Shown one piece after another: positions 5,244-63,854 of a DNA stretch of 64,000 nt. This stretch comes from a bacterium (lineage in GTDB: Bacteria; Patescibacteriota; Saccharimonadia; CAILAD01; JADZBC01). The first letter of the stretch is position 1; each line of letters begins with the position of its first letter. Below the pieces are notes generated by a model. The model ran no database searches and was not told the DNA's origin. It saw nothing but the letters and a program-made list of their open reading frames with translations. The stretch spans positions 216,058-280,057 of the forward strand of contig JADZBC010000009.1 of NCBI GenBank assembly GCA_020852295.1, read 5' to 3'. The translations under genes were made by a program, and so were the position numbers.

Positions 5244-7253
5244 ATGGGTGCAGAAAAGCCGACCAACCAAGAAGCAGATCCAATGCATGGTCAGTCGGGC
5301 AACTTCTATGCTGACTTAGCAAAATCCGTCGAGCAACAGCGTTCGTTGCGAGAGCGCACCGCCGAGGCGTGGAAAAAGTATGCAGGCTATGGCCCTGACT
5401 ATCAGCGACGCAACGCCGAGCGTGCACAATCTGCTCGTGTAAAGATTGACCAGTATGGTGGCGATCAACTTACTATCATTGCCAGCATTAACACGAAAAA
5501 ATTCAATAGCGCTGGCGTTGAGGTAAAGGGCGATGCGGCTAAGCAGCCGGGTCTGACCGAAGGTGAGGCGACAGACCTGCATGACTACAATCCAGAGTCG
5601 CGTAATCACGCCGATATTGAGGCTGCTTACAATGACTATCTCGCACGGACGAAACCAGAGGAGCGACTTGTGATTTTCGAGGGTCGCGTGCGCCCCGACG
5701 AGTTCATCTCAGATCGCGCTACGGCAATTCGCCAAGCATCCGAATCCGGATTACTGCAGTACCTCGCGCGCCGCGATGGCGTGGAGGCTACTTCTGGTGA
5801 GCCAACTGATGAAGCAGTCGCACGGTACTGCTACGAACGCGGTGTCCAGCCCGAGGAACTTGCATTGGTATTGGTGATTCGTGGTCTGACTCACGATCTG
5901 ACGAAAGACCTACCCGACGACATTAGTATGGATATTTATGGTGAGGCGGTCGTTAATGGCCTAGAGGGTTTTGTTGATTATTCCAATGAACAGAAAGCGG
6001 AGATATCGAAAGATCCCGTTCGGATGGCAAAGCTTCAGCAGCAGGCAGTTGAGCTCGCCAAGCGTCAAAACGAAATACTTAGTAGTCTTGGCTTACCGCA
6101 ATTTGAGATTGATGAGCAGGCAAATACGGTTCGCTTTGCATCAGCCGAAGATCGTGCTGCCCTTGCCAAGGCGTGGGATCCGAGTAGTGAAGGGCGCTTG
6201 TCGGACATCCACACCATCATGACCGAAGCGCGCGACAAACATATTCTGGAGACTATCGTGAGTGCCACGGAAGACGGCAAGAAAGTCTTCATGGCCTACG
6301 GCGGCTCGCACGTTGTGAGCCTCGAACCTTGTCTAGATGAATTCTATGGCAAGGCGGAAGCTGCAAGTCAGCCGTCGTCTGATAAAGAATCAGAGCTTGT
6401 TGGTCTTATTGACTCGATCACTCCAGTCGCCGACAAATCAGCAATGCTGTCGGTGCTGAAAGATCCGCGACTTGTTATGTCAAAAGAGGGCAGGGAAGAA
6501 ATCAAAAAGCTAATAAATGTTGATGATCTTCAGCCTGAACAGGTGCGACGATTGGTTGATGCGGGTGCCAAGGAAAAATTGAATGAGATAATCAGTCTGC
6601 GCATGAAGGAGGCGCTCGAGCAGATCTTGCCGCTCGAAGCGCTGCGCAGTGACAATATCATTATCGATCAAAAAGAATCTGCCGATATCGATCCGATCGA
6701 AGAAATTCGCCAAATCGTCACCGACCCAGAACTTACTGCCAACCAGGGAGCAATGCAGAATGTCCTCATTTCTGAACGATCGCAGTACGTATTGAAAGTA
6801 TTGAAGAGTGATCTCCAGGATAATCCTTACGCAAGAGAAACGCTCGCTCATTACGATGAAGTACTAAAGGCATTTGGTCATGATTTTCTGCCTCGTCAAA
6901 TTGGCTTTGAGTTGAGAAATCCTCCGCTTGCCGGCACCTTGCAGGAAAAAGTAGCCATCGATGAATATCAAGTCCTCAATGCCGTGACAGATTTGGAGCA
7001 ATTTGATGATCAGACACAAAGCCCCCAGAACAAAGAAAAAGTAAAAGAGTTTATTGCTGGGTTTGATAGATTGGCTCAGCAGGGCCTTACACTTGATGTG
7101 TTGGGTGATAATGTTTTGTGGAAAAAAGGGACAAACGGTGAGCTGGAGATTCTCATTGTAGACACTGGTTCCTTTAGTAATGACTATGAGGGCAGTGCTC
7201 AAAGTGTACAAGAGGCCAATCGCTTAATAGATCGTTTGCGTCAATTGGTGTAG
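5244..7253 (+). CDS. large hypothetical cytoplasmic protein (669 aa)
   Basis: Long uninterrupted ORF with native-like codon usage. No recognisable motif. Starts 4 nt after the alaS stop. Confidence 0.5.
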   Translation: MGAEKPTNQEADPMHGQSGNFYADLAKSVEQQRSLRERTAEAWKKYAGYGPDYQRRNAERAQSARVKIDQYGGDQLTIIASINTKKFNSAGVEVKGDAAKQPGLTEGEATDLHDYNPESRNHADIEAAYNDYLARTKPEERLVIFEGRVRPDEFISDRATAIRQASESGLLQYLARRDGVEATSGEPTDEAVARYCYERGVQPEELALVLVIRGLTHDLTKDLPDDISMDIYGEAVVNGLEGFVDYSNEQKAEISKDPVRMAKLQQQAVELAKRQNEILSSLGLPQFEIDEQANTVRFASAEDRAALAKAWDPSSEGRLSDIHTIMTEARDKHILETIVSATEDGKKVFMAYGGSHVVSLEPCLDEFYGKAEAASQPSSDKESELVGLIDSITPVADKSAMLSVLKDPRLVMSKEGREEIKKLINVDDLQPEQVRRLVDAGAKEKLNEIISLRMKEALEQILPLEALRSDNIIIDQKESADIDPIEEIRQIVTDPELTANQGAMQNVLISERSQYVLKVLKSDLQDNPYARETLAHYDEVLKAFGHDFLPRQIGFELRNPPLAGTLQEKVAIDEYQVLNAVTDLEQFDDQTQSPQNKEKVKEFIAGFDRLAQQGLTLDVLGDNVLWKKGTNGELEILIVDTGSFSNDYEGSAQSVQEANRLIDRLRQLV

Positions 7254-7376: not shown

Positions 7377-8273
7377 TCACACCGTCGGGAAGCGCATCCC
7401 CAGCTTGCTGCCCAGCAGGTGCCGGAACGGCGGCTGCTGGTAGGGCTGCTGGAACTTGGCGACATGGTCGCGCATCATCTGGCGGTACTCCTCGGTGTGC
7501 AGACCGAGGCTTCGCGTTGCCAGAGGACGCGCCATCACGGTGATGACTCCCACGGCCCACATGAAGCAGGCCGGGTTGTCGATCGACCAGATGGCCAAGC
7601 TCCAGGCGCCAGCCATGGCGAGAAGTTGTGCGAAGAACTTCTTCTTGCCGTAGTGGTTGGCGCCGGGGACCTCTTGCCCGAGCTTCTGGCAGATGTGCTC
7701 CGTCGGCAGGCTGAGCTTGACCAGTGCCAGCTCCTCCTTGAGCGCCCACAGGGCAGTTCCGGTGAAGACCAGGCCGGCCACGGTGCCGTGGTACGACCAG
7801 GTCAGCCACCAGAACGCGCCCAGCAGGCTGATGAAGTACACCTTGTCGGCGAGCGGGTCGATGCCCTTGCCGATGTCGGTGACGCAGTTACGCCGCGCCT
7901 GATCCGGCGGGCGGTCCAGCATGTCTGGCCAGTTGGGGGCTCCCTTGGGCAGGTAGAGGTTGCGGGCAACCGGTCCGTCCAGCCCATCGAGCAGGGCGAG
8001 TCCGGCGGTCGCGACCAGCCACCAGATGGCAGCATTGGTCGATCCCTTCATGGTCGCGATCGCGAGCTGAGCCACCACGTAGGGCGACACCAGCATGCGG
8101 CCGATGCTCATGATGTTGGCGGACTGCCGCAGGATGGGGCGGAGTCGGGGGAAGCGCATCAGCGGCTGCATCCAGGAGAGGAAGAGCAGCTGAGCGATGT
8201 TGTCAAGGAGCTGGCGGAAGCCAGCCTCGATAGTTGCACCCAGTCCTTGCGGCTGGGAGTTGTCGATGGACAT
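7377..8273 (-). CDS. CDP-alcohol phosphatidyltransferase family protein (high-GC, foreign composition)
   Basis: Matches the signature D-G-x2-A-R...G-x3-D-x3-D (LDGPVAR...GKGIDPLADKVY). Multiple TM helices. About 65% GC with G/C-dominated third codon positions. The ATG at 8273 is preceded by a GAGGAGG RBS. The GTG at 8306 is an alternative start. Confidence 0.7.
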   Translation of the reverse strand: MSIDNSQPQGLGATIEAGFRQLLDNIAQLLFLSWMQPLMRFPRLRPILRQSANIMSIGRMLVSPYVVAQLAIATMKGSTNAAIWWLVATAGLALLDGLDGPVARNLYLPKGAPNWPDMLDRPPDQARRNCVTDIGKGIDPLADKVYFISLLGAFWWLTWSYHGTVAGLVFTGTALWALKEELALVKLSLPTEHICQKLGQEVPGANHYGKKKFFAQLLAMAGAWSLAIWSIDNPACFMWAVGVITVMARPLATRSLGLHTEEYRQMMRDHVAKFQQPYQQPPFRHLLGSKLGMRFPTV

Positions 8274-8309
8274 GGGGAAAGCCTCCTCGGCCGGGGATAG
8301 GTTCACATA

Positions 8310-28299: not shown

Positions 28300-28756
28300 C
28301 CAAAATCAGAAAGCACGGGCCGTACGCGAATACTCGGCGGGTGGTATTATTTTTCGTCGTTCCGAAAAAGGGCTCGAGTTTTTGCTAATCCAGGACCTCA
28401 AGAATCGCTGGACGATAGCGAAGGGTCATGTCGAATCTGGTGAAACGCTTGAACAAACAGCCCTACGTGAGATTACCGAAGAAACCGGCCTACGTAGTCT
28501 GCGCATCATCGATCAGCTTGATAAGTTACACTTTTTCTATCGTATGAAGGGCAAGCTCATCTTCATGACCAATTTTGTATTCCTGATTGAGGCAACAGAT
28601 CCAAGCGAAGAGTTGGTTCCCGAAGAGTCAGAGGGGATTATTGATGTACGCTGGTTTGATGAAGCAACCGCGCGAGCAATGATAGAATATAAAGCAACCA
28701 AAGTATTGTTTGACTCAGCGATTCGAAAGATTCGCGATCTGGAGCCAAAGGCCTAA
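28250..28756 (+). CDS. NUDIX hydrolase
   Basis: Nudix box GHVESGETLEQTALREITEETGL. The only ATG start overlaps nusB by 50 nt, so the start is uncertain. Confidence 0.6.
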   Translation: MNQKKTPKRPNKKTRNSQNQKARAVREYSAGGIIFRRSEKGLEFLLIQDLKNRWTIAKGHVESGETLEQTALREITEETGLRSLRIIDQLDKLHFFYRMKGKLIFMTNFVFLIEATDPSEELVPEESEGIIDVRWFDEATARAMIEYKATKVLFDSAIRKIRDLEPKA

Positions 28757-29439
28757 TGTTTGACCACAAATCAATTGAAAAAATACTCGGTATCGAGTTT
28801 TCAAAACCAGAGCTGATCCGCCAGGCATTTATTCATCGCAGCTATATCAACGAGCATAGCAGTTCAGGATTGTCGCATAATGAGCGACTGGAGTTCTTGG
28901 GTGATGCGGTGCTCGAGCTGGTCGTGACTGATCATCTGTATCGCAATTTTGATAATCCAGAAGGTGAGCTGACGAGCTGGCGGAGTGCTCTGGTGAAGAC
29001 CGAATCGCTGGCTGCCCAGGCGCAAAAACTTGAGCTCGGCCAGTACTTGCAGATGAGCCGCGGTGAAGCCAAAAATGGTGGCCGTGAACGCGTTGCCCTT
29101 CTGGCTAACTTATTTGAAGCCATCATTGGTGCGATTTATCTTGATCATGGCTATGAAGCCGCCAAGAACTTTGTGCACGAACATATTATTGCTCAGCTGG
29201 ATCAGATTTTGAGCTCACGAAGCTACATTGATGCCAAGAGCCAATTCCAAGAACTTGCCCAAGAGCGTGAAAATACTACGCCACATTATCGAGTGGTCTC
29301 CGAAGAGGGTCCTGATCACAACAAGATTTTCGAAGTAGCAGTGTTTCTTGGTGCAGTGGAGAAAGGTCGCGGCAAGGGTAACTCTAAGCAATCTGCTCAA
29401 CAGGCTGCCGCGGCTGACGCCCTAAAGTCTTATTCATAG
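28756..29439 (+). CDS. rnc: ribonuclease III
   Basis: Signature ERLEFLGDAVLELVVTDHLY and a C-terminal dsRBD. Confidence 0.9.
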   Translation: MFDHKSIEKILGIEFSKPELIRQAFIHRSYINEHSSSGLSHNERLEFLGDAVLELVVTDHLYRNFDNPEGELTSWRSALVKTESLAAQAQKLELGQYLQMSRGEAKNGGRERVALLANLFEAIIGAIYLDHGYEAAKNFVHEHIIAQLDQILSSRSYIDAKSQFQELAQERENTTPHYRVVSEEGPDHNKIFEVAVFLGAVEKGRGKGNSKQSAQQAAAADALKSYS

Positions 29440-30127: not shown

Positions 30128-31159
30128 ATGACGCCCACCCTCATGCGACGGGTCGGCGCATCTGCCGGCACGATCGTTGACGCACTCACTCATCCGCCCT
30201 ATGGCTGGGGTGAGCATCGCGACTTCGAGTCGCACGCCGATCATGGCTCGGTTGCCGTTACGTTTGAGGATCAGCCGGTGGTGGTGGAGTACTACCACTT
30301 CCCGGCCGGTCCGCATGCGCCGACGGTCTTCATCTGCAACGGCTTCACGGCCAATGCAGGGGTGTATGGCCCACTCGGCAAGGCTGTCTGGCACCACGAG
30401 CACAACGTTGTGCTATTGAGCCTGCCTGGTCACGGCGGCACTACGCTGCCAATGCATCGTCCACTTGGCTATGCCGACACTGCCGAGATCATGATCTCGG
30501 CGATCGAGGCAATCCGTCATGAGACTAGCATGGTCGGGGAGATCATCCTGGCCGGTCACTCTCACGGTGGCGGTGTAGCGATGGCGATCGCGGTGCGGCT
30601 GGGTCAGCAGGCCAATCGGCTGATCTTGCTGGCTTCGGTCGGTGGGCCCGAATGGAGCCGGATCACAACCCACATGCAGCAGAGCCTTGATGGCATTCGC
30701 GCTTGCCACCCCAATCTCGGACAGGTGAGTCGGGACCTACAAGTCCTGGCCATGCTGTTCGGAGAGGGGCTGCTGATGGTGCCACCACCGTGGGATGCCG
30801 TCAACGCCGGCAAGGAGCTGATCCTGCCGTTCGCCCGTGGCTTCCGCGGCTGGCGTCGTCCGCTTGAACTGTGGAGTGTGGCAATCGACACCATCGTCGG
30901 CGACGCTTACTCGCTCGAGAGCGATCTCGCGCAGGTGAAGCGACTGGGTATCCCAACGGCCTGTGTGGCGGGCAAGCTCGATGGCGTGATCAACCGCAAG
31001 GTCATCCGGCAACAGGCCAAGCTGGCGGGTGCTGGGGAGTTTCACTACACCACCACCCATGCCAGCTTCCTCGCACCGGAGGCACGTCGTCGTATCGCCG
31101 AGCTCATCACTCTGCCAGATGATTCGTTCAAGTTGGCCGTCGAGAAGCATCTTCGCTGA
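30128..31159 (+). CDS. alpha/beta hydrolase (high-GC island gene 2)
   Basis: G-x-S-x-G nucleophile elbow (AGHSHGG). A CTGGAGG RBS sits upstream. Confidence 0.65.
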   Translation: MTPTLMRRVGASAGTIVDALTHPPYGWGEHRDFESHADHGSVAVTFEDQPVVVEYYHFPAGPHAPTVFICNGFTANAGVYGPLGKAVWHHEHNVVLLSLPGHGGTTLPMHRPLGYADTAEIMISAIEAIRHETSMVGEIILAGHSHGGGVAMAIAVRLGQQANRLILLASVGGPEWSRITTHMQQSLDGIRACHPNLGQVSRDLQVLAMLFGEGLLMVPPPWDAVNAGKELILPFARGFRGWRRPLELWSVAIDTIVGDAYSLESDLAQVKRLGIPTACVAGKLDGVINRKVIRQQAKLAGAGEFHYTTTHASFLAPEARRRIAELITLPDDSFKLAVEKHLR

Positions 31160-35899: not shown

Positions 35900-35928
35900 T
35901 TGACAAATCCCCTATTTTATGCTAATAT
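35900..35928 (+). promoter_or_regulatory. consensus sigma70 promoter TTGACA-17-TAATAT (cassette copy 1)
   Basis: Perfect -35 and a near-consensus -10 with a 17-nt spacer. Duplicated at 36580-36608. Confidence 0.6.
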
Positions 35929-36034
35929 TTCTTCTAATTCCTACCTGTATGGATAGGTGGAGGAGCCCTCGGGTAACTCAGCGGCGTAGCTCTGGCGCCA
36001 CCCCAGAGCACTTGAAATGGAAGGAGGTGCTCGG
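35929..36034 (+). promoter_or_regulatory. structured roughly 105-nt leader, copy 1 (mutually exclusive hairpins GGCGU..GCGCC and GCTCTGG..CCAGAGC)
   Basis: Conserved against copy 2 at about 75% identity, with compensatory substitutions. Ends in an AAGGAGG RBS. Confidence 0.5.
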
Positions 36035-36463
36035 ATGAGCACCACCGAACTGAAGAAGGTCAACCTGCTCGAGTTCTTCGAGAAGGTGATCAACGGTCCC
36101 TCCCGCGAGGAGCTGTTCGACAGCCTGCGGCTGTTCAACCTCCGCCAGACGCTGGTCGAGTTCACGCTCGAGCAGAAGCGGCTGCGCGGATCGATGGTCA
36201 AGCCGACGGTCATCAAGGCCCGCGTCATGGGCATCCGTCCCGAGGACGGGTCGTCCAACCGCTGGCTGGTGGACCTGCTGGTCAACCAGATCGTCAACAG
36301 CGACACCGAGCCGGAGGACCCGTACGTCTCGATCTACTTCGACACCCAGGTGCGAGCAGGGCACATCATCGTCCCGCCGCAGCGCGAGGTCGTCGTGCGA
36401 GACGGACAGATCGTGCTGGACGGCACGGTGATCGGGAACCTCCCGGCCGCCACGTTCAGCTGA
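36035..36463 (+). CDS. hypothetical protein A (142 aa), high-GC cassette cargo, paralog of the 36713..37075 protein
   Basis: AAGGAGG RBS 8 nt upstream. Shares GPSREELFD(S/A)L and GI(R/S)xEDGSxNxW(L/I) blocks with protein B. G/C-rich third positions. Confidence 0.55.
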   Translation: MSTTELKKVNLLEFFEKVINGPSREELFDSLRLFNLRQTLVEFTLEQKRLRGSMVKPTVIKARVMGIRPEDGSSNRWLVDLLVNQIVNSDTEPEDPYVSIYFDTQVRAGHIIVPPQREVVVRDGQIVLDGTVIGNLPAATFS

Positions 36464-36469
36464 TCTTCG

Positions 36470-36577
36470 GCAAGCCAGGCCACTGGGGCCCGTGAAGATT
36501 CTACGCTTCAACGATCCGATACGTTAATTCGGGTCACCACCCAAGTTCATAACTCGTTTGTGAGTTTAGGTGGAAAG
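36470..36577 (+). repeat. 3-prime flank repeat copy 1 (about 108 nt, 97% identical to 37079-37184)
   Basis: Direct repeat containing an AACTC-gtttgt-GAGTT hairpin. Immediately followed by the next promoter. Confidence 0.7.
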
Positions 36578-36579
36578 TA

Positions 36580-36608
36580 TTGACAATATGTATTAAATAT
36601 GCTAATAT
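36580..36608 (+). promoter_or_regulatory. consensus sigma70 promoter TTGACA-17-TAATAT (cassette copy 2)
   Basis: Same hexamers and spacing as copy 1. Confidence 0.6.
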
Positions 36609-36712
36609 TTCTTCGATTCTTACCTGCATGGGTAAGTGGAGACGCCTTCGGGCATCTTAACGGCGCAGCTCTGGCGCCATCCCAGAGCACAAAACAGAAA
36701 GGGGTGTCTCGT
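36609..36712 (+). promoter_or_regulatory. structured leader, copy 2
   Basis: Hairpins CTTACC-tgcatg-GGTAAG and GCC-TTCG-GGC. Alternative pair GGCGC..GCGCC and GCTCTGG..CCAGAGC. RBS AAAGGGG. Confidence 0.5.
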
Positions 36713-37075
36713 ATGAGCACCGCCACCATCCACCCCGAAGACAAGTTCTTCGGACCCTCCCGCGAGGAGTTGTTCGACGCACTCGAACACGACCGAACCC
36801 TTCGCATGACACTGGAGAAGGACTGGTCGCAGACCAGCGATCCGCGGCAGATCGTCTTCCGGGTCATCGGCATCAGCCGCGAAGATGGTTCGAACAACTC
36901 CTGGATCCTGGAGATCGCCCTCGTGTCTGCCGTGGAGGAGCGGTTCTACCAGGGGGTCGAGGCATCGCTCAACTTCGGTGATCGCGGAGGTAAGAAGTTC
37001 GCCTCCGTCCTCGGTCGCAAGATCCGGGTGCACTACTCCTCAGCGAAGGCTGAAGGCCGATTCCTGGAGTTCTGA
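36713..37075 (+). CDS. hypothetical protein B (120 aa), paralog of protein A
   Basis: The ATG follows the leader. Conserved blocks are shared with protein A. High GC3. Confidence 0.55.
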   Translation: MSTATIHPEDKFFGPSREELFDALEHDRTLRMTLEKDWSQTSDPRQIVFRVIGISREDGSNNSWILEIALVSAVEERFYQGVEASLNFGDRGGKKFASVLGRKIRVHYSSAKAEGRFLEF

Positions 37076-37078
37076 GTG

Positions 37079-37184
37079 CAAGCCAGGCCACTGGGGCCGT
37101 GAAGCTTCTACGCTTCAACGATCCGATACGTTAATTCGGGTCACCACCCAAGTTCATAACTCGCTTGTGAGTTTAGGTGGAAAA
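37079..37184 (+). repeat. 3-prime flank repeat copy 2
   Basis: Near-identical to 36470-36577 (one indel, three substitutions). Confidence 0.7.
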
Positions 37185-37194
37185 TACTAAAACG

Positions 37195-37237
37195 GTACAA
37201 GCCCCCGACAAGATTGCTCTCGTCGGGGGCTTTGTAC
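37195..37237 (-). terminator. strong hairpin GTACAAAGCCCCCGAC-12 nt-GTCGGGGGCTTGTAC with a U-rich tail on the minus strand
   Basis: A 15-16-bp stem abutting the stop of the minus-strand ligase gene. May act bidirectionally. Confidence 0.6.
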
Positions 37238-38508
37238 TACACCAACACCGTGCCGGTCAGGATGGCATCCTTCGCGCCGTGCACGGCCTTGTTCGGCCGA
37301 GCCGTGATGGCGATGTCCTCCACGCCGGTTCGGCTGAAGTAGGCGGTGAGGCGCAGCTGCCATTCACCCGGCGGATCGAGCTGACCGCGCTCGTCGAATC
37401 GCTGCCAGGCGAACCGGCGGTTGGTCACCTCGCGCTGGAGGATGTTGGCGCCCCGCTGCCGACTGGCCGCCAGCAGCGCCTCGCCGAACTCCGGCTCGTC
37501 GCCGAAGTAGATGCCGCGCATTCCCGAAGCCACTGACTGCTTGAGCACCAGACCGTGGTGGTTCGACAGCTGGGGCGTTGTCCAGTCGCGGCCGATGATG
37601 TGGGTCATCGGCAAGTGCGACCGCACGACACGCAGAGCCGATTCACTGATCTGACTGCGCACCAGCGCTTCGATGGCCGGGTCGCCCACCGCGTTGCTCA
37701 CCACCCCGAGCAGCGACTTGCTCGCCAAGAAGTGCTTGGGGGAGATGAGGCACTGCAGCGTGCCACTCTTCAAGCCGGCGCGGAGCCAGTCGATGAGCGG
37801 CTTGTTGTAGTTCATCGGCGGCATGTCGATGAGGGTCGGCGGCAGCACCTCGCCCGTGCGGGCGTGACGCATGACGCCGGAGTGCACATCGACCTGCAGC
37901 TCGTTGATCACAGCCATCTCGATGCCCAGGAGCTTGAGCTCGCGAGCGATGATCGCAAACTCCGGCTCGTAGAAGCGCTGCGTGTCACCGAACAGGAACG
38001 TCACCGCGTCAATGCGGCGGCGCCGGCACTCAGCGGCGATGTAAGCAGCGACACCCGGGAGCTGTGCGGCCTCGGGCCGGAGCACCTGGCAGATGCGTCG
38101 ACCGATGATGGAGTAGCCCCAGCTGCGGGGGTTCGTCGCATCGATCTCGGCCAACCAGATGTGGCCCTGCTCGTCGATGAGCAGGTCGCACTTGCGCAGG
38201 ATGGGGAGGTTGCGCGGCCGGTTGTTGGGCAGCTTGTAGGGCGTGCCCTGCTTGAGGGTGTTGCCGATGCGTCCGTACGGCAGCATCTTGCCACACAGAT
38301 CCGGCTGCTCGCTGATGGCGACGATCCGGCTGATACCACCCAGCACCTCGTCGATGGCGGGGGCCAGCTGGTTGAGCTGGTTGAGCTGGTCGCTACCCAG
38401 TTCGTATACGTCCGGTGAGAGCTGGAAAGCGTGCGACCGCTCCTGCTCGCCGTTCCAAATGCCCGTCTCACGGACAGTTTCTTGCAACTCCGCAAACATG
38501 GTGTCCAT
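37237..38508 (-). CDS. glutathionylspermidine-synthase-like (YgiC/YjfC family) ATP-grasp amidoligase, high-GC
   Basis: Motif order matches the GspS-like family. The N-terminal block LIDEQGHIWLAEIDATNP matches YgiC LDLAWDG..LLENNADTP. The C-terminal lysine block GLVLKQSVASGMRGIYF matches YgiC YVVKPIFSREGANVSI. Start taken at the second ATG, which has an AAAGGA RBS. The longest ORF starts at 38541. Confidence 0.6.
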   Translation of the reverse strand: MDTMFAELQETVRETGIWNGEQERSHAFQLSPDVYELGSDQLNQLNQLAPAIDEVLGGISRIVAISEQPDLCGKMLPYGRIGNTLKQGTPYKLPNNRPRNLPILRKCDLLIDEQGHIWLAEIDATNPRSWGYSIIGRRICQVLRPEAAQLPGVAAYIAAECRRRRIDAVTFLFGDTQRFYEPEFAIIARELKLLGIEMAVINELQVDVHSGVMRHARTGEVLPPTLIDMPPMNYNKPLIDWLRAGLKSGTLQCLISPKHFLASKSLLGVVSNAVGDPAIEALVRSQISESALRVVRSHLPMTHIIGRDWTTPQLSNHHGLVLKQSVASGMRGIYFGDEPEFGEALLAASRQRGANILQREVTNRRFAWQRFDERGQLDPPGEWQLRLTAYFSRTGVEDIAITARPNKAVHGAKDAILTGTVLV

Positions 38509-38575
38509 GGCGGGTCCTTTCGGGTTGGGGTGCGTGTGCACCGATGTGAAGGTGTAGTCCTGCTGAATCGCAGGC

Positions 38576-53767: not shown

Positions 53768-54208
53768 CTACTTGCTGCCAAATAGTAGGTATATCGTTGG
53801 CATAAGTATAAAAAATAGAAACCCGAACATGCAAAGCATGGAAATAATAAATGAGAGAAAACCTTTAATAGGAACCGCATTATATTCGAATGGTTCATCG
53901 TCGAGTGGGGCAAACGGGCCTCGCCATCGTCGGATAGATAATGACCAGTACAAAAACCGGCCTGTTTTACGGATAAAGATAATATATGGGATGTAGAAAA
54001 AAAGGAGATATTCGACGAAAAACACATTCATGAAAATAATGAGCGGTACATACTCAGCTTGTTCAGTAGAGTTGGTTTCGCCGAGCTTGATGTAGAAGTA
54101 GCCAAGAATACCCATTACGACCGCATAATACAAAAGAAACGCTGCGATGCGTCGCCCAGTAACGAACGGGAAGTCCTTTGGTTGTTTGGCTATGTTTTTT
54201 GTTGCCAT
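53768..54208 (-). CDS. hypothetical polytopic membrane protein
   Basis: ORF with four hydrophobic helices. Confidence 0.4.
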   Translation of the reverse strand: MATKNIAKQPKDFPFVTGRRIAAFLLYYAVVMGILGYFYIKLGETNSTEQAEYVPLIIFMNVFFVEYLLFFYIPYIIFIRKTGRFLYWSLSIRRWRGPFAPLDDEPFEYNAVPIKGFLSFIISMLCMFGFLFFILMPTIYLLFGSK

Positions 54209-54261
54209 AGTAAAAGCTTAAGTGGTTCGCATGATAAAGGCAATTGCTCTTGTCAAAAGTA

Positions 54262-54343
54262 TTGCAATATTGCCTAATTTATGTTAGAGTATATTTTCCG
54301 CTCAATCCCGAGTGGTAACCCGTTCCCCGACAACTGGAGTGAC
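54262..54343 (+). promoter_or_regulatory. cassette 1 promoter (TTGCAA-17-TAGAGT) and leader with hairpin plus conserved CCCGTTCCCCGACA box
   Basis: The box at 54319-54332 is shared verbatim with cassettes 2 and 3. GGAG RBS. Confidence 0.5.
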
Positions 54344-54712
54344 ATGCCCAAGAAGAAGAACAACCCCAAGCTCGTGACCGGTGAGGTCAAGTGGACCCTG
54401 ACGGACCGAGGCAAGGCTGGTCGTTGCCACCACCTGGTGGACATCGATGGCAAGCGAGTGCGCGGCACCGCCGGCATCAAGCTGGACGGCTACTGCACCA
54501 TCGTCTACAACCCCGCCAACGAGACCATCCGCTTCGTCGAGCGTTCGATCATGGACATCGACGAGGTGCCGCGTGGCGCCAAGCTGGTCCTCGAGCACGT
54601 GGGCGACCCGGTCGCCCGCTGGGGCTTCCTCCCGGCCGATCTCGGCGGCAACCCGCCGGAGGGCACGGTCGTGATCATCGGCTCCTCGGAGCTGGCCACG
54701 GCCAACGCCTGA
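54344..54712 (+). CDS. hypothetical protein P1 (122 aa), high-GC cassette cargo
   Basis: GC3 about 90% by eye. GGAG RBS 6 nt upstream. Unique sequence. Confidence 0.55.
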   Translation: MPKKKNNPKLVTGEVKWTLTDRGKAGRCHHLVDIDGKRVRGTAGIKLDGYCTIVYNPANETIRFVERSIMDIDEVPRGAKLVLEHVGDPVARWGFLPADLGGNPPEGTVVIIGSSELATANA

Positions 54713-54732
54713 GACCTTCGGGTCGAACGGGA

Positions 54733-54804
54733 CCCGGGACGCAGTTGCGTCCCGGGGATCCCCCTGAGCTATCTTATGCAAAGATGGTTGAGGGGGATTT
54801 TTTG
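54733..54804 (+). terminator. conserved 3-prime element 1: CCCGGGACGC-AGTT-GCGTCCCGGG hairpin, then ATCCCCC-(TGAGC..GGTTGA loop)-GGGGGAT hairpin, then T6
   Basis: The two-hairpin module is repeated after each of the three cassettes. Confidence 0.6.
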
Positions 54805-54817
54805 TAGCTATACAATA

Positions 54818-54894
54818 TTGAAATTACATTATAAATATGTTAAAGTGATATGACCCTCTCACGAGGGCCCGTTCCCCGACACAAGGAGGCAGCA
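54818..54894 (+). promoter_or_regulatory. cassette 2 promoter (TTGAAA-17-TAAAGT) and leader with CCCTC-tcac-GAGGG hairpin plus CCCGTTCCCCGACA box
   Basis: Same architecture as cassettes 1 and 3. AAGGAGG RBS. Confidence 0.5.
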
Positions 54895-55269
54895 ATGCCC
54901 GAAAGCACCCAGACAATCCTCGCGGTTGTCAGCGAAGTCCATGCCCGGCACGCTCCGCACACCTTCGACGCCATGGGACTGTTCATTCTCGACAGTGATC
55001 AGCCCCACGACGCGTCGTATCGCGGTTTGCGTCCGCTCGGCTTCCGCTGTTCGCACTTCGATGAGCAGACAGGTCGAGTCTGGTTCGGTGACGTCGATGA
55101 GGCACACCGTGTCTCGGCGCCGTCCATCCGCGACCTGGAAGCCGGCCAACAGTTGGTCCTTATCCAGGAGCAGGCTGGTGAGTTGCTGTGGGGTCTGCCC
55201 ACGCCCACTCTCAAGGCGGCCCTCGACTACATGTTCGATGGGTTCATGCAGCTGGCCTACGGTGGCTGA
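54895..55269 (+). CDS. hypothetical protein P2 (124 aa), high-GC cassette cargo
   Basis: Perfect AAGGAGG RBS 7 nt upstream. GC3-rich. Unrelated to P1 and P3. Confidence 0.55.
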   Translation: MPESTQTILAVVSEVHARHAPHTFDAMGLFILDSDQPHDASYRGLRPLGFRCSHFDEQTGRVWFGDVDEAHRVSAPSIRDLEAGQQLVLIQEQAGELLWGLPTPTLKAALDYMFDGFMQLAYGG

Positions 55270-55288
55270 CACCTCGGCTGGAACGGGA

Positions 55289-55358
55289 CCTGAGGCGCGC
55301 AAGCGCCTCGGGAGTCCCCCTGAGCTATCTTATGCAAAGATGGTTGAGGGGGATTTTT
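55289..55358 (+). terminator. conserved 3-prime element 2: CCTGAGGCGC-GCAA-GCGCCTCGGG (GNRA loop), then TCCCCC-(TGAGC..GGTTGA)-GGGGGA, then T5
   Basis: The second hairpin is identical to element 1. The first hairpin is structurally equivalent with sequence covariation. Confidence 0.6.
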
Positions 55359-55362
55359 AGTA

Positions 55363-55449
55363 TTGAAAAAATTGTGTAATCATGCTATAGTATCAAAACT
55401 CTCTCAGCCGAGAGGGTATCCGTTCCCCGACAGATTAGATTGGACCCCG
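55363..55449 (+). promoter_or_regulatory. cassette 3 promoter (TTGAAA-17-TATAGT) and leader with CTCTC-tcagcc-GAGAG hairpin plus CCGTTCCCCGACA box
   Basis: The -35 starts right after the U-tract of element 2. The box lies at 55420-55432. Confidence 0.5.
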
Positions 55450-55926
55450 ATGACCCAACGCAATTCATCCTCCCGCCGTCCACGAGGTGATCAGCCTCGT
55501 CGTGCTGGAGGTACTCCCTCCCGTGCCGATGCCCGAACGGGCGGCACACGTACGGGCCAACCGCCGCGTCGCAAGATGTCGGCTACCACCCATCGAGCCA
55601 TCGTCAAGGTGCTCGACCCCCGCAACGAGGGTCAGTACTTCGGCTTCGTTCGACTGCTCGACGAGCAGGGTGTGCAGACCGGCGAGGAGGTCTACTTCCG
55701 CTGGAATGACGGCAGCCCCGTCGAGTACAAGCCGGGCGGCCACGTCTGGTTCGTCGACCCGAACAACAAGGGCGACCACAAGCGCAAGCCGGTGGTCGAG
55801 CGACCCATGCCGGGCGACCACATCGTCTGCCGTGTCGTGGTCACGCATCGCGGCAAGAAGGTCCTGATGTGGGGCTTCTACGACCGCGACCTCCACGAGG
55901 CAGCGATTCGTCAGGGTTGCGACTGA
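55450..55926 (+). CDS. hypothetical protein P3 (158 aa): Arg-rich disordered N-terminus plus OB-fold (cold-shock-like) domains
   Basis: AIVKVLDPRNEGQYFGFVRLLDEQG...EVYFRWNDG resembles the CSD signature GxVKWFNxxKGFGFI...DVFVHxS. High GC3. Confidence 0.5.
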   Translation: MTQRNSSSRRPRGDQPRRAGGTPSRADARTGGTRTGQPPRRKMSATTHRAIVKVLDPRNEGQYFGFVRLLDEQGVQTGEEVYFRWNDGSPVEYKPGGHVWFVDPNNKGDHKRKPVVERPMPGDHIVCRVVVTHRGKKVLMWGFYDRDLHEAAIRQGCD

Positions 55927-55943
55927 TCCAAGTCGGGGCAACG

Positions 55944-56005
55944 CCCGGAGCGCGCAAGCGTTCCGGGTAGCCCCTGAGCCAATAGTCATGTTGGTTGAGG
56001 GGCTA
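55944..56005 (+). terminator. conserved 3-prime element 3: CCCGGAGCGC-GCAA-GCGTTCCGGG, then TAGCCCC-(TGAGC..GGTTGA)-GGGGCTA
   Basis: Same two-hairpin topology as elements 1 and 2, with compensatory stem changes. No U-tract. Confidence 0.5.
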
Positions 56006-56046
56006 GAGATAATCATTAAAAAGTGCTATAGTTGAAGCCTAATTAG

Positions 56047-60438: not shown

Positions 60439-60471
60439 GAGGCCCATCGTTTGATGGGCCTCGTGTATAAT
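60439..60471 (+). promoter_or_regulatory. terminator hairpin GAGGCCCATC-GTTT-GATGGGCCTC, immediately followed by extended -10 TGTATAAT
   Basis: Perfect 10-bp stem after the protease stop. TGnTATAAT sits 24 nt upstream of the heliorhodopsin ATG, which has an AGAGG RBS. Confidence 0.55.
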
Positions 60472-60495
60472 GTACGTATAAACATAAGAGGTTAC

Positions 60496-61266
60496 ATGGC
60501 GACGCAAAGTCAGAAGATTACAAAACTGGTTCGATTTAATCGCATCATGGCCGCCCTCCATTTCCTTCAGGGCGTAGCAATGGTATTGCTTAGTAAGAAT
60601 TTTACATTGCCCATTCAGGCAAATTTCTTGAGTTTTGACGTAAAGACCCAAAGCCTCGTTCCTGCCACCAAGACTCTCTTTGATCTGCCGTTAGCTTGGC
60701 TCGTAGCTGGCTTTTTATTTATGTCAGCTGCTGCACACCTCATAATCTCGACCATTTATAAGAAGCGCTACGAGAAGGGGCTCAAGCAGGGTATCAATCG
60801 GGCTCGTTGGATCGAATACTCTATTTCAGCCAGTACCATGATGGTGGCGATTGCTCTGCTGGTTGGTATCTATGACGCGGGGCTTTTGATTGCTATCTTT
60901 GCGCTAACTGCTGTCATGAACTTGCTGGGTTTGGTTATGGAGATCCACAATCAAACTACTCAAAAAACAAATTGGGTTAGCTATATCGTAGGCTGCATCA
61001 GCGGAATAGTACCCTGGATTGTGGTAGCACTTTACTTCTGGTCAGCTGCCCAGTACGGTGACGGCAAAATCCCAGACTTTGTGTACTGGATATATGTCAG
61101 TATTTTTATCTTCTTCAACTGCTTTGCCATCAATATGATTCTGCAATACAAGAAGTGGGGCAAGTGGTCAGACTACCTTTATGGTGAGCGCGCCTACATC
61201 ATCCTGAGTCTTGTTGCGAAATCGCTTCTTGCGTGGCAGGTTTTTGCCGGTACACTGCGCCCCTAG
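60496..61266 (+). CDS. heliorhodopsin (7-TM retinal protein)
   Basis: Close match to characterised heliorhodopsin blocks: FNRI near the N-terminus, WIEYSISAS, GCISGIVPWI, and KWSDYLYGERAYIILSLVAKSLLAWQVFAGTL. The Schiff-base Lys sits in VAKS. Seven hydrophobic helices. Confidence 0.85.
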   Translation: MATQSQKITKLVRFNRIMAALHFLQGVAMVLLSKNFTLPIQANFLSFDVKTQSLVPATKTLFDLPLAWLVAGFLFMSAAAHLIISTIYKKRYEKGLKQGINRARWIEYSISASTMMVAIALLVGIYDAGLLIAIFALTAVMNLLGLVMEIHNQTTQKTNWVSYIVGCISGIVPWIVVALYFWSAAQYGDGKIPDFVYWIYVSIFIFFNCFAINMILQYKKWGKWSDYLYGERAYIILSLVAKSLLAWQVFAGTLRP

Positions 61267-63143: not shown

Positions 63144-63854
63144 ATGGAAGCGAAGAAGCCATCTGCCCGCGAGCTCGTCTCACTGGCAGTTCTCGTGACG
63201 GTCTTCACTTGGTTGAGCCGTCGTCGTGTTGGACTCGGCCTCAGCCGAGCACGGAGTGGCTGGAAGGCCAACCCGCTGCGCATGGTTGCGCAACTGGTCA
63301 CCTCGGTGATCATCGGCCAGGGCATCTTCTGGCTGGTGGGTTACGACCAGCTTGGTATCAGCATGAACCCGACTCATCAGATGGGTCGACTCAAGCAATT
63401 GGCCGAGCGATTGGCTGAGAAGGTGCCGGATGACCCGCTCTGGGCCTGGCTCCTCAAGGCGCTTGAAATCGCCACCGACTTCGGGAAGTGCCCGATCGAG
63501 GGAGCGGTTTACCTGCGTCACGGCATCGTCAGCGATGCCGTAGCGGCTGGTGTGACGCAGCCATGGTGGAGTGTGGTCGAGGGAGCTGAGAAGTTCAACG
63601 GGGCGCTGATGCATCCCGAGCGGGTCAACACCCGTGAGCAGATCGCGCTCTCGATCGGCTGCACACTCGGCAGCCTATTCCGCTACCTGTTGGCCGCGAT
63701 CGTGTGGTTCGGTGGCGGTGTCATCAATCGCCAGCTGACCGATCGACTCGAACGCGGCTATCGCGAGCTGGACCCCGTGATCATCACTGGTTCTGGTGTG
63801 GTGGTGGCAGTCATCATCGGTCACGGCCTTCGGGTCGGCAACCAGACGAACTGA
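63144..63854 (+). CDS. hypothetical polytopic membrane protein, high-GC island gene
   Basis: GGGGAGG RBS. GC3-rich. Four or more TM helices. Followed by a complex GC hairpin. Confidence 0.55.
   Translation: MEAKKPSARELVSLAVLVTVFTWLSRRRVGLGLSRARSGWKANPLRMVAQLVTSVIIGQGIFWLVGYDQLGISMNPTHQMGRLKQLAERLAEKVPDDPLWAWLLKALEIATDFGKCPIEGAVYLRHGIVSDAVAAGVTQPWWSVVEGAEKFNGALMHPERVNTREQIALSIGCTLGSLFRYLLAAIVWFGGGVINRQLTDRLERGYRELDPVIITGSGVVVAVIIGHGLRVGNQTN

Follow-up and report, generated by a model that had tools for sequence, protein, structure and literature searches.

A tandem array of three GC-rich genes in copies of a putative expression scaffold upstream of typA in a Saccharimonadia chromosome

Three head-to-tail units, each composed of a promoter, a leader stem-loop, a short conserved box, a GC-rich open reading frame (ORF) and two 3' hairpins, were identified upstream of typA at positions 54262-56005 (plus strand) of a 64,000-nucleotide (nt) stretch of a Saccharimonadia genome (GCA_020852295.1, contig JADZBC010000009.1), the whole of which is called the window here. 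The gene VIT1 lies on the other side of the units. With modest confidence, we read the region as a lineage-restricted chromosomal array of three separately promoted, moron-like foreign genes (encoding P1, P2 and P3) set in copies of one tandem-duplicated expression scaffold. A preliminary description of the sequence had noted three consecutive units with the same skeleton, and these are present; it overlooked that the 5' box of every unit is complementary to sequence located 0-8 nt past the stop codon. The feature is real and unusual; it combines known kinds of element, namely foreign transcription units, conserved-repeat arrays and pairing of the untranslated regions (UTRs) at the 5' and 3' ends, and is not a new category. 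The features are listed below with the evidence for each, including the duplex energies and the comparisons with 30-nt windows of each unit's own coding sequence (CDS) that are taken up further on.

54262..54290 (+): unit 1 promoter-like site, TTGCAA-17 nt-TAGAGT and a TG preceding the -10; read from the sequence and in alignment with promoters from units 2 and 3 and from relatives
54298..54315 (+): unit 1 leader stem-loop near the predicted 5' end, CCGCUC/GAGUGG; leader and full-transcript folds
54319..54332 (+): unit 1 5' box CCCGTTCCCCGACA; 13-mer match, minimum free energy (MFE) pairing with 54718-54731 at pair probability 0.64-1.0
54344..54712 (+): P1, 122 aa, GC content at third codon positions (GC3) 0.91, orphan; ORF list and family searches
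54718..54731 (+): unit 1 3' box TCGGGTCGAACGGG, complement of the 5' box; duplex of -20.3 kcal/mol, stronger than all 336 own-CDS windows
54733..54756 (+): unit 1 hairpin 1, 10-bp GC stem with AGUU loop; inverted repeat and covariation in helix 1
54758..54803 (+): unit 1 hairpin 2 and U-tract, intrinsic-terminator-like, with a conserved base CCCUGAG/UUGAGGG that includes a G.G mismatch and a G.U pair; inverted repeat, fold and covariation
54818..54846 (+): unit 2 promoter-like site, TTGAAA-17-TAAAGT with TG; promoter scan
54854..54867 (+): unit 2 leader stem-loop CCCUC/GAGGG; folds
54868..54881 (+): unit 2 5' box CCCGTTCCCCGACA; 13-mer match, fold and pair probability
54895..55269 (+): P2, 124 aa, GC3 0.74; ORF of a small fast-evolving family
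55274..55287 (+): unit 2 3' box TCGGCTGGAACGGG; duplex of -20.5 kcal/mol, with 0/342 CDS windows as strong
55289..55312 (+): unit 2 hairpin 1, GCAA loop; fold and covariation
55315..55359 (+): unit 2 hairpin 2 and U-tract, 41 nt identical to unit 1 hairpin 2; inverted repeats and sequence comparison
55363..55391 (+): unit 3 promoter-like site, TTGAAA-17-TATAGT with TG; promoter scan, 10/12 positions
55399..55416 (+): unit 3 leader stem-loop CUCUCUC/GAGAGGG; folds
55420..55432 (+): unit 3 5' box CCGTTCCCCGACA; 13-mer match, fold and pair probability
55450..55926 (+): P3, 158 aa, GC3 0.76, orphan, with 42 Arg-rich residues at the N-terminus and then a predicted all-beta domain; ORF and prediction
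55927..55943 (+): unit 3 3' box UCCAAGUCGGGGCAACG, beginning at the base after the stop codon and pairing with the box and with UUGGA before the start codon; -19.1 kcal/mol, 0/444 CDS windows as strong, probability 0.98-1.0
55944..55967 (+): unit 3 hairpin 1, GCAA loop; fold and covariation
55968..56005 (+): unit 3 hairpin 2 lacking a U-tract, its 3' end overlapping the -35 of the typA promoter; inverted repeat and promoter scan

A promoter scan of the region returned 7 sites where 1.7 were expected, including those of unit 2, unit 3 and typA (56004-56032), which have the TG extension in common. The sigma70-like promoters reported earlier were thereby recovered for units 2 and 3, and the unit 1 site matched 8/12 positions and fell slightly under the scan threshold. 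ATTG.A and TG.TA..GT were invariant when the promoters of the units and of relatives were aligned. The comparisons covered three lineages, namely the window type and those represented by contigs L098 and L003/L096. A leader hairpin of 5-8 bp with the CUC/GAG core described previously was found near the predicted 5' end in all six units folded for it (three from the window and three from L096). The exact 13-mer CCGTTCCCCGACA occurred in the window only at 54320, 54869 and 55420, and the box core can be written in general form as CGTTCCCCGA(A)C. Its exact recurrence had been claimed with a distance of 12-22 nt to the ATG; the recurrence stands, and the distance from the 3' end of the box is corrected to 11-17 nt.

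Homology between units extended past the boxes, as entire intergenic regions were ~71% identical. The hairpin-2 motif CCTGAG..TTGAGG was observed 3 times in the window against 0.21 expected, and intergenic nhmmer profiles found no further match within it. Both 3' hairpins of the earlier module were confirmed in all three units, although its U-tract is missing from unit 3, as it is from L096 units 2 and 3, and a GGAG-type ribosome-binding site was evident in units 1 and 2 but not clearly in unit 3. Independent transcription of each unit thus keeps a promoter-like site per unit, and since a terminator-like hairpin with U-tract is limited to units 1 and 2, the idea of three monocistronic transcripts is partly backed. 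Rfam covariance models returned two tRNAs only for the whole window at gathering thresholds and nothing credible at E<=10 across this array and a second array of the window (Q1/Q2, below). A role of the box as an uptake-signal sequence was rejected, given that the window contains far too few copies of it. The alignments, with a homologous intergenic frame around unalignable ORFs, favour a duplicated expression scaffold.

The ORFs for P1-P3 have 62-66% GC and GC3 values of 0.91, 0.74 and 0.76. Foreign composition was defined as GC3 of at least 0.72, which applied to 9/57 ORFs tabulated in the window, and the 48 ORFs under the cut-off ranged from 0.43 to 0.69, mostly 0.45-0.60, so the array is compositionally foreign as first described. 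P2 of the window and of L098 are 91% identical, and the underlying substitutions fell 7/7/23 by codon position, a skew which indicates that the small GC3-rich ORFs are real genes. Antisense ORFs (e.g. 54302-54781, minus) were rejected as a by-product of high GC; in that ORF, codon position 1 corresponds to sense position 3 by coordinate arithmetic.

The 3' hairpins were analysed for covariation with a set of eight 3' modules from the three lineages. Both sides were changed in 12/25 pairs and 97.5% of cells were paired, whereas slid controls gave 36-52% paired, and 0/500 shuffles matched the observed paired fraction or covariation score. The compensatory stem changes pointed out earlier therefore hold up. 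In hairpin 2 the base CCCUGAG/UUGAGGG was invariant, with a G.G mismatch and a G.U pair, and the upper stem covaried; the fold is specific to the plus strand because of its G.U pairs. Such compensatory changes imply selection on structure, beyond conversion alone, and the aligned modules show that compensatory change maintains the 3' hairpins. The modules also differed in how alike they were within an array. Hairpin 2 of window units 1 and 2 (54758-54798, 55314-55354) was identical over 41 nt, whereas the two L098 copies (113-150, 669-707) had five differing positions, including a compensated C-G to U-A pair. This contrast indicates recent gene conversion between units, and the alignments thus show modules exchanging sequence between units.

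The locus was recovered from more than 10 independent metagenome assemblies (ENA, JGI, Logan; exact-protein look-ups), always between VIT1 and typA and in one orientation, and is therefore not an assembly artefact; an invertible segment was rejected on the same uniform orientation across all contigs. Between the window and L096 the protein identity was 95% for the TypA N-terminus, 90% for VIT1, 74% for P3 and 45% for P2, and typA DNA was 81% identical between lineages sharing the locus and the number of units. The L003/L096 array likewise comprises three units, and in its slot 1 the place of P1 is taken by a P2 paralog (32% identity, E=2e-16), so that units multiply by duplication, and the sequence comparison shows that whole units were duplicated. 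This slot and window unit 1 have orthologous 3' flanks (GGGTCGAACGGGACCCGG...GGGGATCCCCCTGAG), and P1 has no DNA or protein similarity to the slot 1 product of L003/L096 (BLASTP E=16). An orthologous flank beside an unrelated CDS means that cargo was replaced inside a conserved frame, and by this comparison a replacement within the scaffold, P1 versus the P2 paralog, is shown at least once. Overprinting of P1 against the L096 slot 1 CDS was rejected, as there is no DNA similarity and off-frame 'hits' were compositional artefacts of high GC. The comparison of the typA-upstream locus, suggested when the array was first noted, thus revealed differing slot 1 content between two of the three lineages, while slots 2 and 3, unit number and locus were constant.

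In two strains otherwise ~1% different from the window (L001, at 6265-6278, and L004), a block of 13-15 nt between the box and the P1 start codon (window 54331-54343) was replaced. The spacer from box to P1 start, including the ribosome-binding site, read AATGAAAGGCATCAG in place of CAACTGGAGTGAC. At the level of sequence, this replaced block and the hairpin 2 conversion are signs of recombination at the modules.

The complementarity between the 5' box and the sequence after the stop codon was examined in transcripts of seven units from the three lineages, each folded over the span from its predicted start through hairpin 2. The MFE fold paired the box with the 3' box, thereby closing the ORF, in all seven full transcripts. 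In seven of seven units the leading four positions of the box (GUUC) paired with a probability of 0.98-1.0, and in five the value was 0.64-1.0 over all seven box positions; in L98_U2 and L96_U2 the last two positions paired with a probability of ~0. The box duplex (-14.8 to -20.5 kcal/mol) was stronger than every 30-nt window of the unit's own CDS (0/336-444) in 7/7 units. Among 46 chance box-plus-ORF sites from viral contigs, a single one, with -17.7, went beyond -15 kcal/mol; this maximum is exceeded by five of the seven units, and the weakest unit (-14.8) lies within the null range. The GAACGG complement was absent among the twelve strongest of these 46 null sites. The helices have 11-16 bp and are bulged. 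In units 1 and 2 they stop 3-4 nt short of GGAG on its upstream side, and in unit 3 UUGGA before the AUG is covered as well. The window unit 3 helix is built from CGUU/AACG, CCCCGAC/GUCGGGG and UUGGA/UCCAA and that of L096 unit 3 from GUUC/GAAC, CCC/GGG, CAGAU/AUCUG and UGGA/UCCA, so pairing is achieved through a different sequence.

If the region is an expression scaffold, its parts would follow in the order of a native-type extended -10 promoter, a 5' stem-loop, the box paired with its post-stop complement, a GC tetraloop hairpin and a second long hairpin. Box and complement would enclose the ribosome-binding site and ORF in one large loop, and hairpin 2 with its U's would serve as a transcription terminator in units 1 and 2. 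The scaffold may act at the RNA level, where the terminal stem-loops and the 5'-3' helix could shield the mRNA against exonuclease attack, gate translation, or both; as the helix abuts the ribosome-binding site and the stop codon, ribosomes would have to open it at initiation and at termination. Compositionally foreign ORFs could in this way be expressed from native signals. Selection on RNA structure together with gene conversion would keep the scaffold copies alike, and cargo would evolve fast and occasionally be replaced by recombination inside the scaffold. If the scaffold works in this manner, it would be a compact and repeated case of an mRNA closed by pairing of leader and post-stop sequence, with the module common to several unrelated genes, and it bears on how a small-genome bacterium, in which 9/57 window ORFs are foreign, plugs alien ORFs into native expression signals.

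To our knowledge, pairing between a bacterial 5' leader and post-stop sequence is known from only a few single genes. In the icaR mRNA of Staphylococcus aureus such pairing reportedly occludes the Shine-Dalgarno sequence, triggers RNase III cleavage and lowers translation. The array resembles it in that 3' sequence is complementary to the 5' UTR near the ribosome-binding site in 7/7 array units, as predicted by folding, and in that an RNase III gene is present. It differs in that the helix is mostly just upstream of the Shine-Dalgarno sequence, starts 0-8 nt after the stop codon and is repeated on several genes. By analogy, the icaR interaction, a case of 5'-3' UTR base pairing within one mRNA (PMC3868564), would be the nearest documented mechanism. 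The array also resembles another kind of unit in its promoter-like sites, the hairpin and U-tract terminators of units 1 and 2, its foreign composition and its small products. These are the phage morons of Hendrix and colleagues, said to be independent promoter-gene-terminator units with composition unlike that of their neighbours. In contrast to morons, the array units are tandem, have homologous UTRs and sit in a housekeeping chromosome with CorA, VIT1 and typA as neighbours. No link to phages was found, as there was no PHROG match and no phage DNA or protein match for the array.

The box pair was also found outside the array. The near-identical strain contig L228 reaches 8.5 kb beyond the right end of the window and has a solitary GC-rich gene of 221 aa with Pfam cytidylate-kinase matches (L228:18274-19040, minus strand), ~15 kb downstream of the array. 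Upstream of this gene are a TTGAAA-17-TAGAAT promoter, a different leader hairpin and then CCCGTTCCCCGAACA, GAGAGG and ATG, with CCCGTTCCCCGAACA placed 12 nt before the ATG (counted after its final CA). Eight nt after the stop codon is GGTTCGGAGAACC, a 10/11 complement of the box, and next to it a different terminator hairpin. The box pair therefore occurs beyond the array and can frame unrelated cargo of a known family, and there are four box-bearing genes in ~72 kb. The expectation that both the box and the 3' module might mark further loci was borne out for the box at this gene, and not for the intergenic module elsewhere in the window by nhmmer. Closure of the cytidylate-kinase-like transcript is predicted, with an ambiguous pairing partner.

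A second and unrelated tandem pair of small GC-rich genes is located at window positions 35900-37190 (plus strand), comprising Q1 (36035-36463, GC3 0.94) and Q2 (36713-37075, GC3 0.81). Both genes are preceded by a consensus TTGACA-17-TAATAT promoter and by a leader of ~100 nt that is structured. Identity was 85% between the 5' UTRs and almost complete between the 3' UTRs over their first ~105 nt (84% overall with a divergent tail), and the proteins shared 41% identity over 63 aa and had no family match.

Several observations weigh against the scaffold reading with its closing helix. The UTRs of Q1 and Q2 are equally conserved, yet have no special 5'-3' complementarity, so a conserved-UTR pattern needs no closing helix; a general 5'-3' closure of foreign genes was rejected on these grounds, as it was not seen in Q1/Q2 or in the other GC-rich genes of the window. 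The closing helix is all Watson-Crick and the 5' box nearly invariant, with little true covariation, and an RNA helix is for this reason indistinguishable from a DNA inverted repeat. The units share ancestry, which makes the seven helix cases non-independent, and the promoters, terminators and folds are all predicted from sequence. In a guessed transcript of the cytidylate-kinase-like unit the 3' box folded onto another leader segment and not onto the box. Finally, there are weak hints in the protein comparisons that P1, P2 and P3 may all be very diverged paralogs.

These hints belong to the view that the array consists of ordinary tandem paralogs, where P1-P3 would be diverged copies of one small beta-rich gene and the flanks alike through duplication and conversion, with the box complementarity an accident of inheritance or a piece of an earlier terminator. 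This view is in line with the P2 paralog found in slot 1 of a relative and with the evidence for gene conversion, and also with Q1 and Q2, which follow the same pattern and are clear paralogs. P1-P3 have a weak collinear motif (F..., G..lVl...WG, L) that hhalign places in the same region at E=0.003-0.014, and the predicted strand and helix order of P2 is similar to that of the P3 domain. The similarity is marginal, however, with hhalign probabilities of 3-10% and shuffle P=0.01-0.15, and the earlier statement that the ORF products are dissimilar is supported in so far as no similarity among them is significant. In addition, hairpin compensation indicates structural selection and not just conversion, a non-homologous solitary gene whose hairpins are different has the box pair too, and no DNA similarity links the CDS of P1 to that in slot 1 of the relative despite the orthologous 3' flank. 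We consider the paralog explanation rather unlikely.

A DNA-level role for the box pair is the most interesting alternative, although an unlikely one. In its plainest version a mobile cassette system would recombine at the box and at its inverted copy, the two bounding the ribosome-binding site and ORF. A recombinase or transposase whose gene lies elsewhere would act in trans to insert such units into expression slots or exchange them there, much as happens with an integron/CALIN array or mobile insertion cassette. Each ORF is bracketed by inverted repeats of 11-16 bp, which are found again around unrelated cargo at a distant locus, and four box-bearing genes occur in ~72 kb. The right breakpoint of the slot 1 swap is at the stop codon, the block replaced in near-identical strains lies precisely between box and P1 start codon, and the repeat cores have the form GTT...AAC as at integron cassette ends. 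The searches for the machinery and for signs of movement gave a different picture. No integrase or transposase was found among the ~48 window ORFs with Pfam results (~9 window ORFs were outside the scan) or within 5 kb of the array, where the precomputed results for neighbours named CorA, VIT1, TypA, a trypsin-like protease and heliorhodopsin. No target-site duplication or direct repeat was visible beside the box repeats, and the repeats are inside the promoter and terminator and not at the outer ends of the units. The same three slots occupy the same locus in diverged lineages, in one orientation in more than 10 independent contigs. Taken together, a mobile cassette system appears improbable.

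Wider searches agreed with a lineage-restricted element, within the scope of scans that required the tandem intergenic arrangement or the exact box and that solitary or diverged units would escape. The pattern CCCTGAG..GTTGAGG..GTTCCCC gave 73 single matches from unrelated taxa in 596 Gb of GTDB species-representative genomes, which were taken as chance because there was one per contig and no related lineage among them. In JGI metagenomes the L003 contig was the sole real match to the intergenic pattern, there was none in IMG/VR, and two further viral scans gave chance matches only.

Known cassette systems bear on the same question. An integron attC site is an imperfect stem with R'' (RYYYAAC) / L'' ... 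L' / R' (GTTRRRY), and integron cassettes are mostly promoterless and read from Pc; cassette arrays of this kind include sedentary chromosomal ones with VCR-type repeats, and a CALIN is an integrase-less cassette cluster, so that adjacency to IntI is not required. The array is similar in having small same-strand, mostly orphan ORFs between conserved dyad repeats of ~180 bp with ends of the form ...AAC / GTT..., and in having one slot whose cargo varies between relatives. It differs in its boundary cores, (G)GAACGGG and CCCGTTCCCC, in which GTT is followed by pyrimidines (GTTCCCC and not GTTRRRY), and in its intergenic interior, where hairpin 1, hairpin 2, an AT-rich promoter and the leader hairpin fold separately in place of a single attC-type stem. 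Moreover, each unit has a promoter-like site, the array is short, syntenic and stable, and no IntI was found within the Pfam scope given above. The preliminary description, which saw cassette logic here with neither integrase nor attC core, is borne out on both absences within that scope, and its cassette logic survives in the conserved frame, the variable slot 1 cargo and the box at a further locus; the results give no support to a mobile integron-like system.

Mobile insertion cassettes and cargo-carrying miniature inverted-repeat transposable elements (MITEs) have terminal inverted repeats of the insertion-sequence type around passenger genes. The array is comparable in that inverted repeats flank a passenger gene lacking a transposase at more than one locus with different cargo. 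In contrast to these elements, the repeats are internal to promoter and terminator, no target-site duplication was visible, no transposase was seen in the window and no presence/absence polymorphism was seen for the array units. Polymorphic toxin and immunity arrays are recognised by their toxin or immunity domains or by a conserved N-terminal delivery domain joined to a variable C-terminus, whereas here the conserved parts are non-coding, and no polymorphic toxin or immunity domain was detected in P1-P3 with Pfam, NCBIfam or PADLOC.

A broader version would make the box pair a genome-wide portable frame that takes in and expresses foreign GC-rich ORFs with no dedicated integrase, the repeats serving both as homology arms or recombination sites and as the helix that closes the mRNA. 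We hold this to be decidedly unlikely. If true, the typA array would be one visible cluster of a dispersed gene-capture platform in a reduced-genome bacterium like those of the candidate phyla radiation (CPR). The slot 1 swap, the replaced block between box and cargo and the distant fourth copy make the choice between local duplication and a genome-wide platform testable.

The boxes are also complementary across each intergenic region, which suggests possible pairing on a read-through transcript. The 3' box of one unit would then pair with the 5' box of the next, ~150 nt apart, and RNase III or a different nuclease would cut the closed intergenic multi-hairpin stalk, releasing stable monocistronic mRNAs in the manner of phage T7 early RNA and rRNA precursors. 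An RNase III gene with Ribonuclease_3 and dsrm domains is encoded in the window (28756-29439, plus strand); it would matter if processing took place at the box helix or the intergenic stalk, and its presence also counts in favour of a scaffold acting at the RNA level. The absence of U-tracts from unit 3 and from L096 units 2 and 3 makes read-through likely and is a further point for an inter-unit helix. Processing stalks for RNase III are found in rRNA precursors and phage T7 early mRNA, and the array shares with them complementary sequences bracketing the RNA, stable 3' hairpins and signals repeated between cistrons. In contrast, the array helices are short for RNase III at 11-16 bp with bulges, there are promoters inside the intergenic elements, and processing is only hypothetical here. 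Units 1 and 2 end in a hairpin and U-tract upstream of the next promoter, and the first 5' box, the last 3' box and both boxes of the cytidylate-kinase-like gene are conserved with no neighbouring partner. An inter-unit helix is in our estimation very unlikely.

The proteins gave few clues to function. Family searches with profile models, proposed when the ORFs were first noted, yielded none for P1-P3 in Pfam and NCBIfam, nor was there a match in PHROGs, PADLOC or PDB sequence searches. Three word-index searches of 5.8 billion proteins matched P1-P3 to their own small clusters only. A P2 profile used in an exhaustive HMMER search recovered its own family; the remaining multi-stretch matches to giant cadherin/Ig-repeat proteins were rejected at an hhalign probability of 2%. 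Array blastn against phage and plasmid collections gave no match, and tblastn of P1-P3 against phages gave nothing below E=0.9. AlphaFold2 models were of low confidence, with a predicted local distance difference test (pLDDT) score of 45.8 for P3 and 52.1 for P2. The Arg-rich part attributed to P3 is real and located at the N-terminus, and the cold-shock-like OB fold attributed to it was not supported, given that low score and the absence of a Pfam, NCBIfam or PDB match. A Foldseek search of the PDB with the P2 model (best E 0.56, scattered OB-like folds) was not used. P1-P3 and Q1/Q2 are fast-evolving orphans, a pattern typical of conflict or host-interaction genes.

At the strain level, P2 had up to 11 substitutions in 375 nt relative to L001, L004 and L224, located at 55026-55217 and clustered at 55179-55217, and these were transitions except for one and not adenine-specific. 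P1 and P3 had sparser strain-level substitutions (0-3).

The window is housekeeping chromosome, including genes for AlaRS, LeuRS, SMC, a class II ribonucleotide reductase, Mur ligases, Obg, TrmD, S16 and RNase III, and its housekeeping proteins are short (AlaRS 626 aa, SMC 825 aa) and accompanied by many orphans. Further GC-rich islands with GC3 of 0.73-0.88 were located at 7377-8306 (minus), 30128-31159 (plus), 37237-38541 (minus) and 63144-63854 (plus). Their products are a CDP-alcohol phosphatidyltransferase, an alpha/beta hydrolase and those of two genes with no family. The three islands inspected upstream (7377-8306, 30128-31159 and 63144-63854) adjoin an AT-rich native-type promoter.

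Between VIT1 and unit 1 is an ORF of 146 aa (53768-54208, minus strand) of low GC (41%) with hydrophobic stretches and no family match, which is missing at the same position in the L003/L096 lineage. The heliorhodopsin gene is at 60451-61266 (plus strand; Pfam E=1e-100); together with the short housekeeping proteins and the many orphans it suggests an organism of the CPR/Patescibacteria type. Some near-identical strains have an extra gene of 601 aa with no Pfam match after typA and before the trypsin-like protease gene, which is not in the window and was located as follows.

L224:4568-6373: extra 601-aa gene, near-identical strain
L228:4773-6578: extra 601-aa gene, near-identical strain
L229:1158-2963: extra 601-aa gene, near-identical strain
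L230:4773-6578: extra 601-aa gene, near-identical strain

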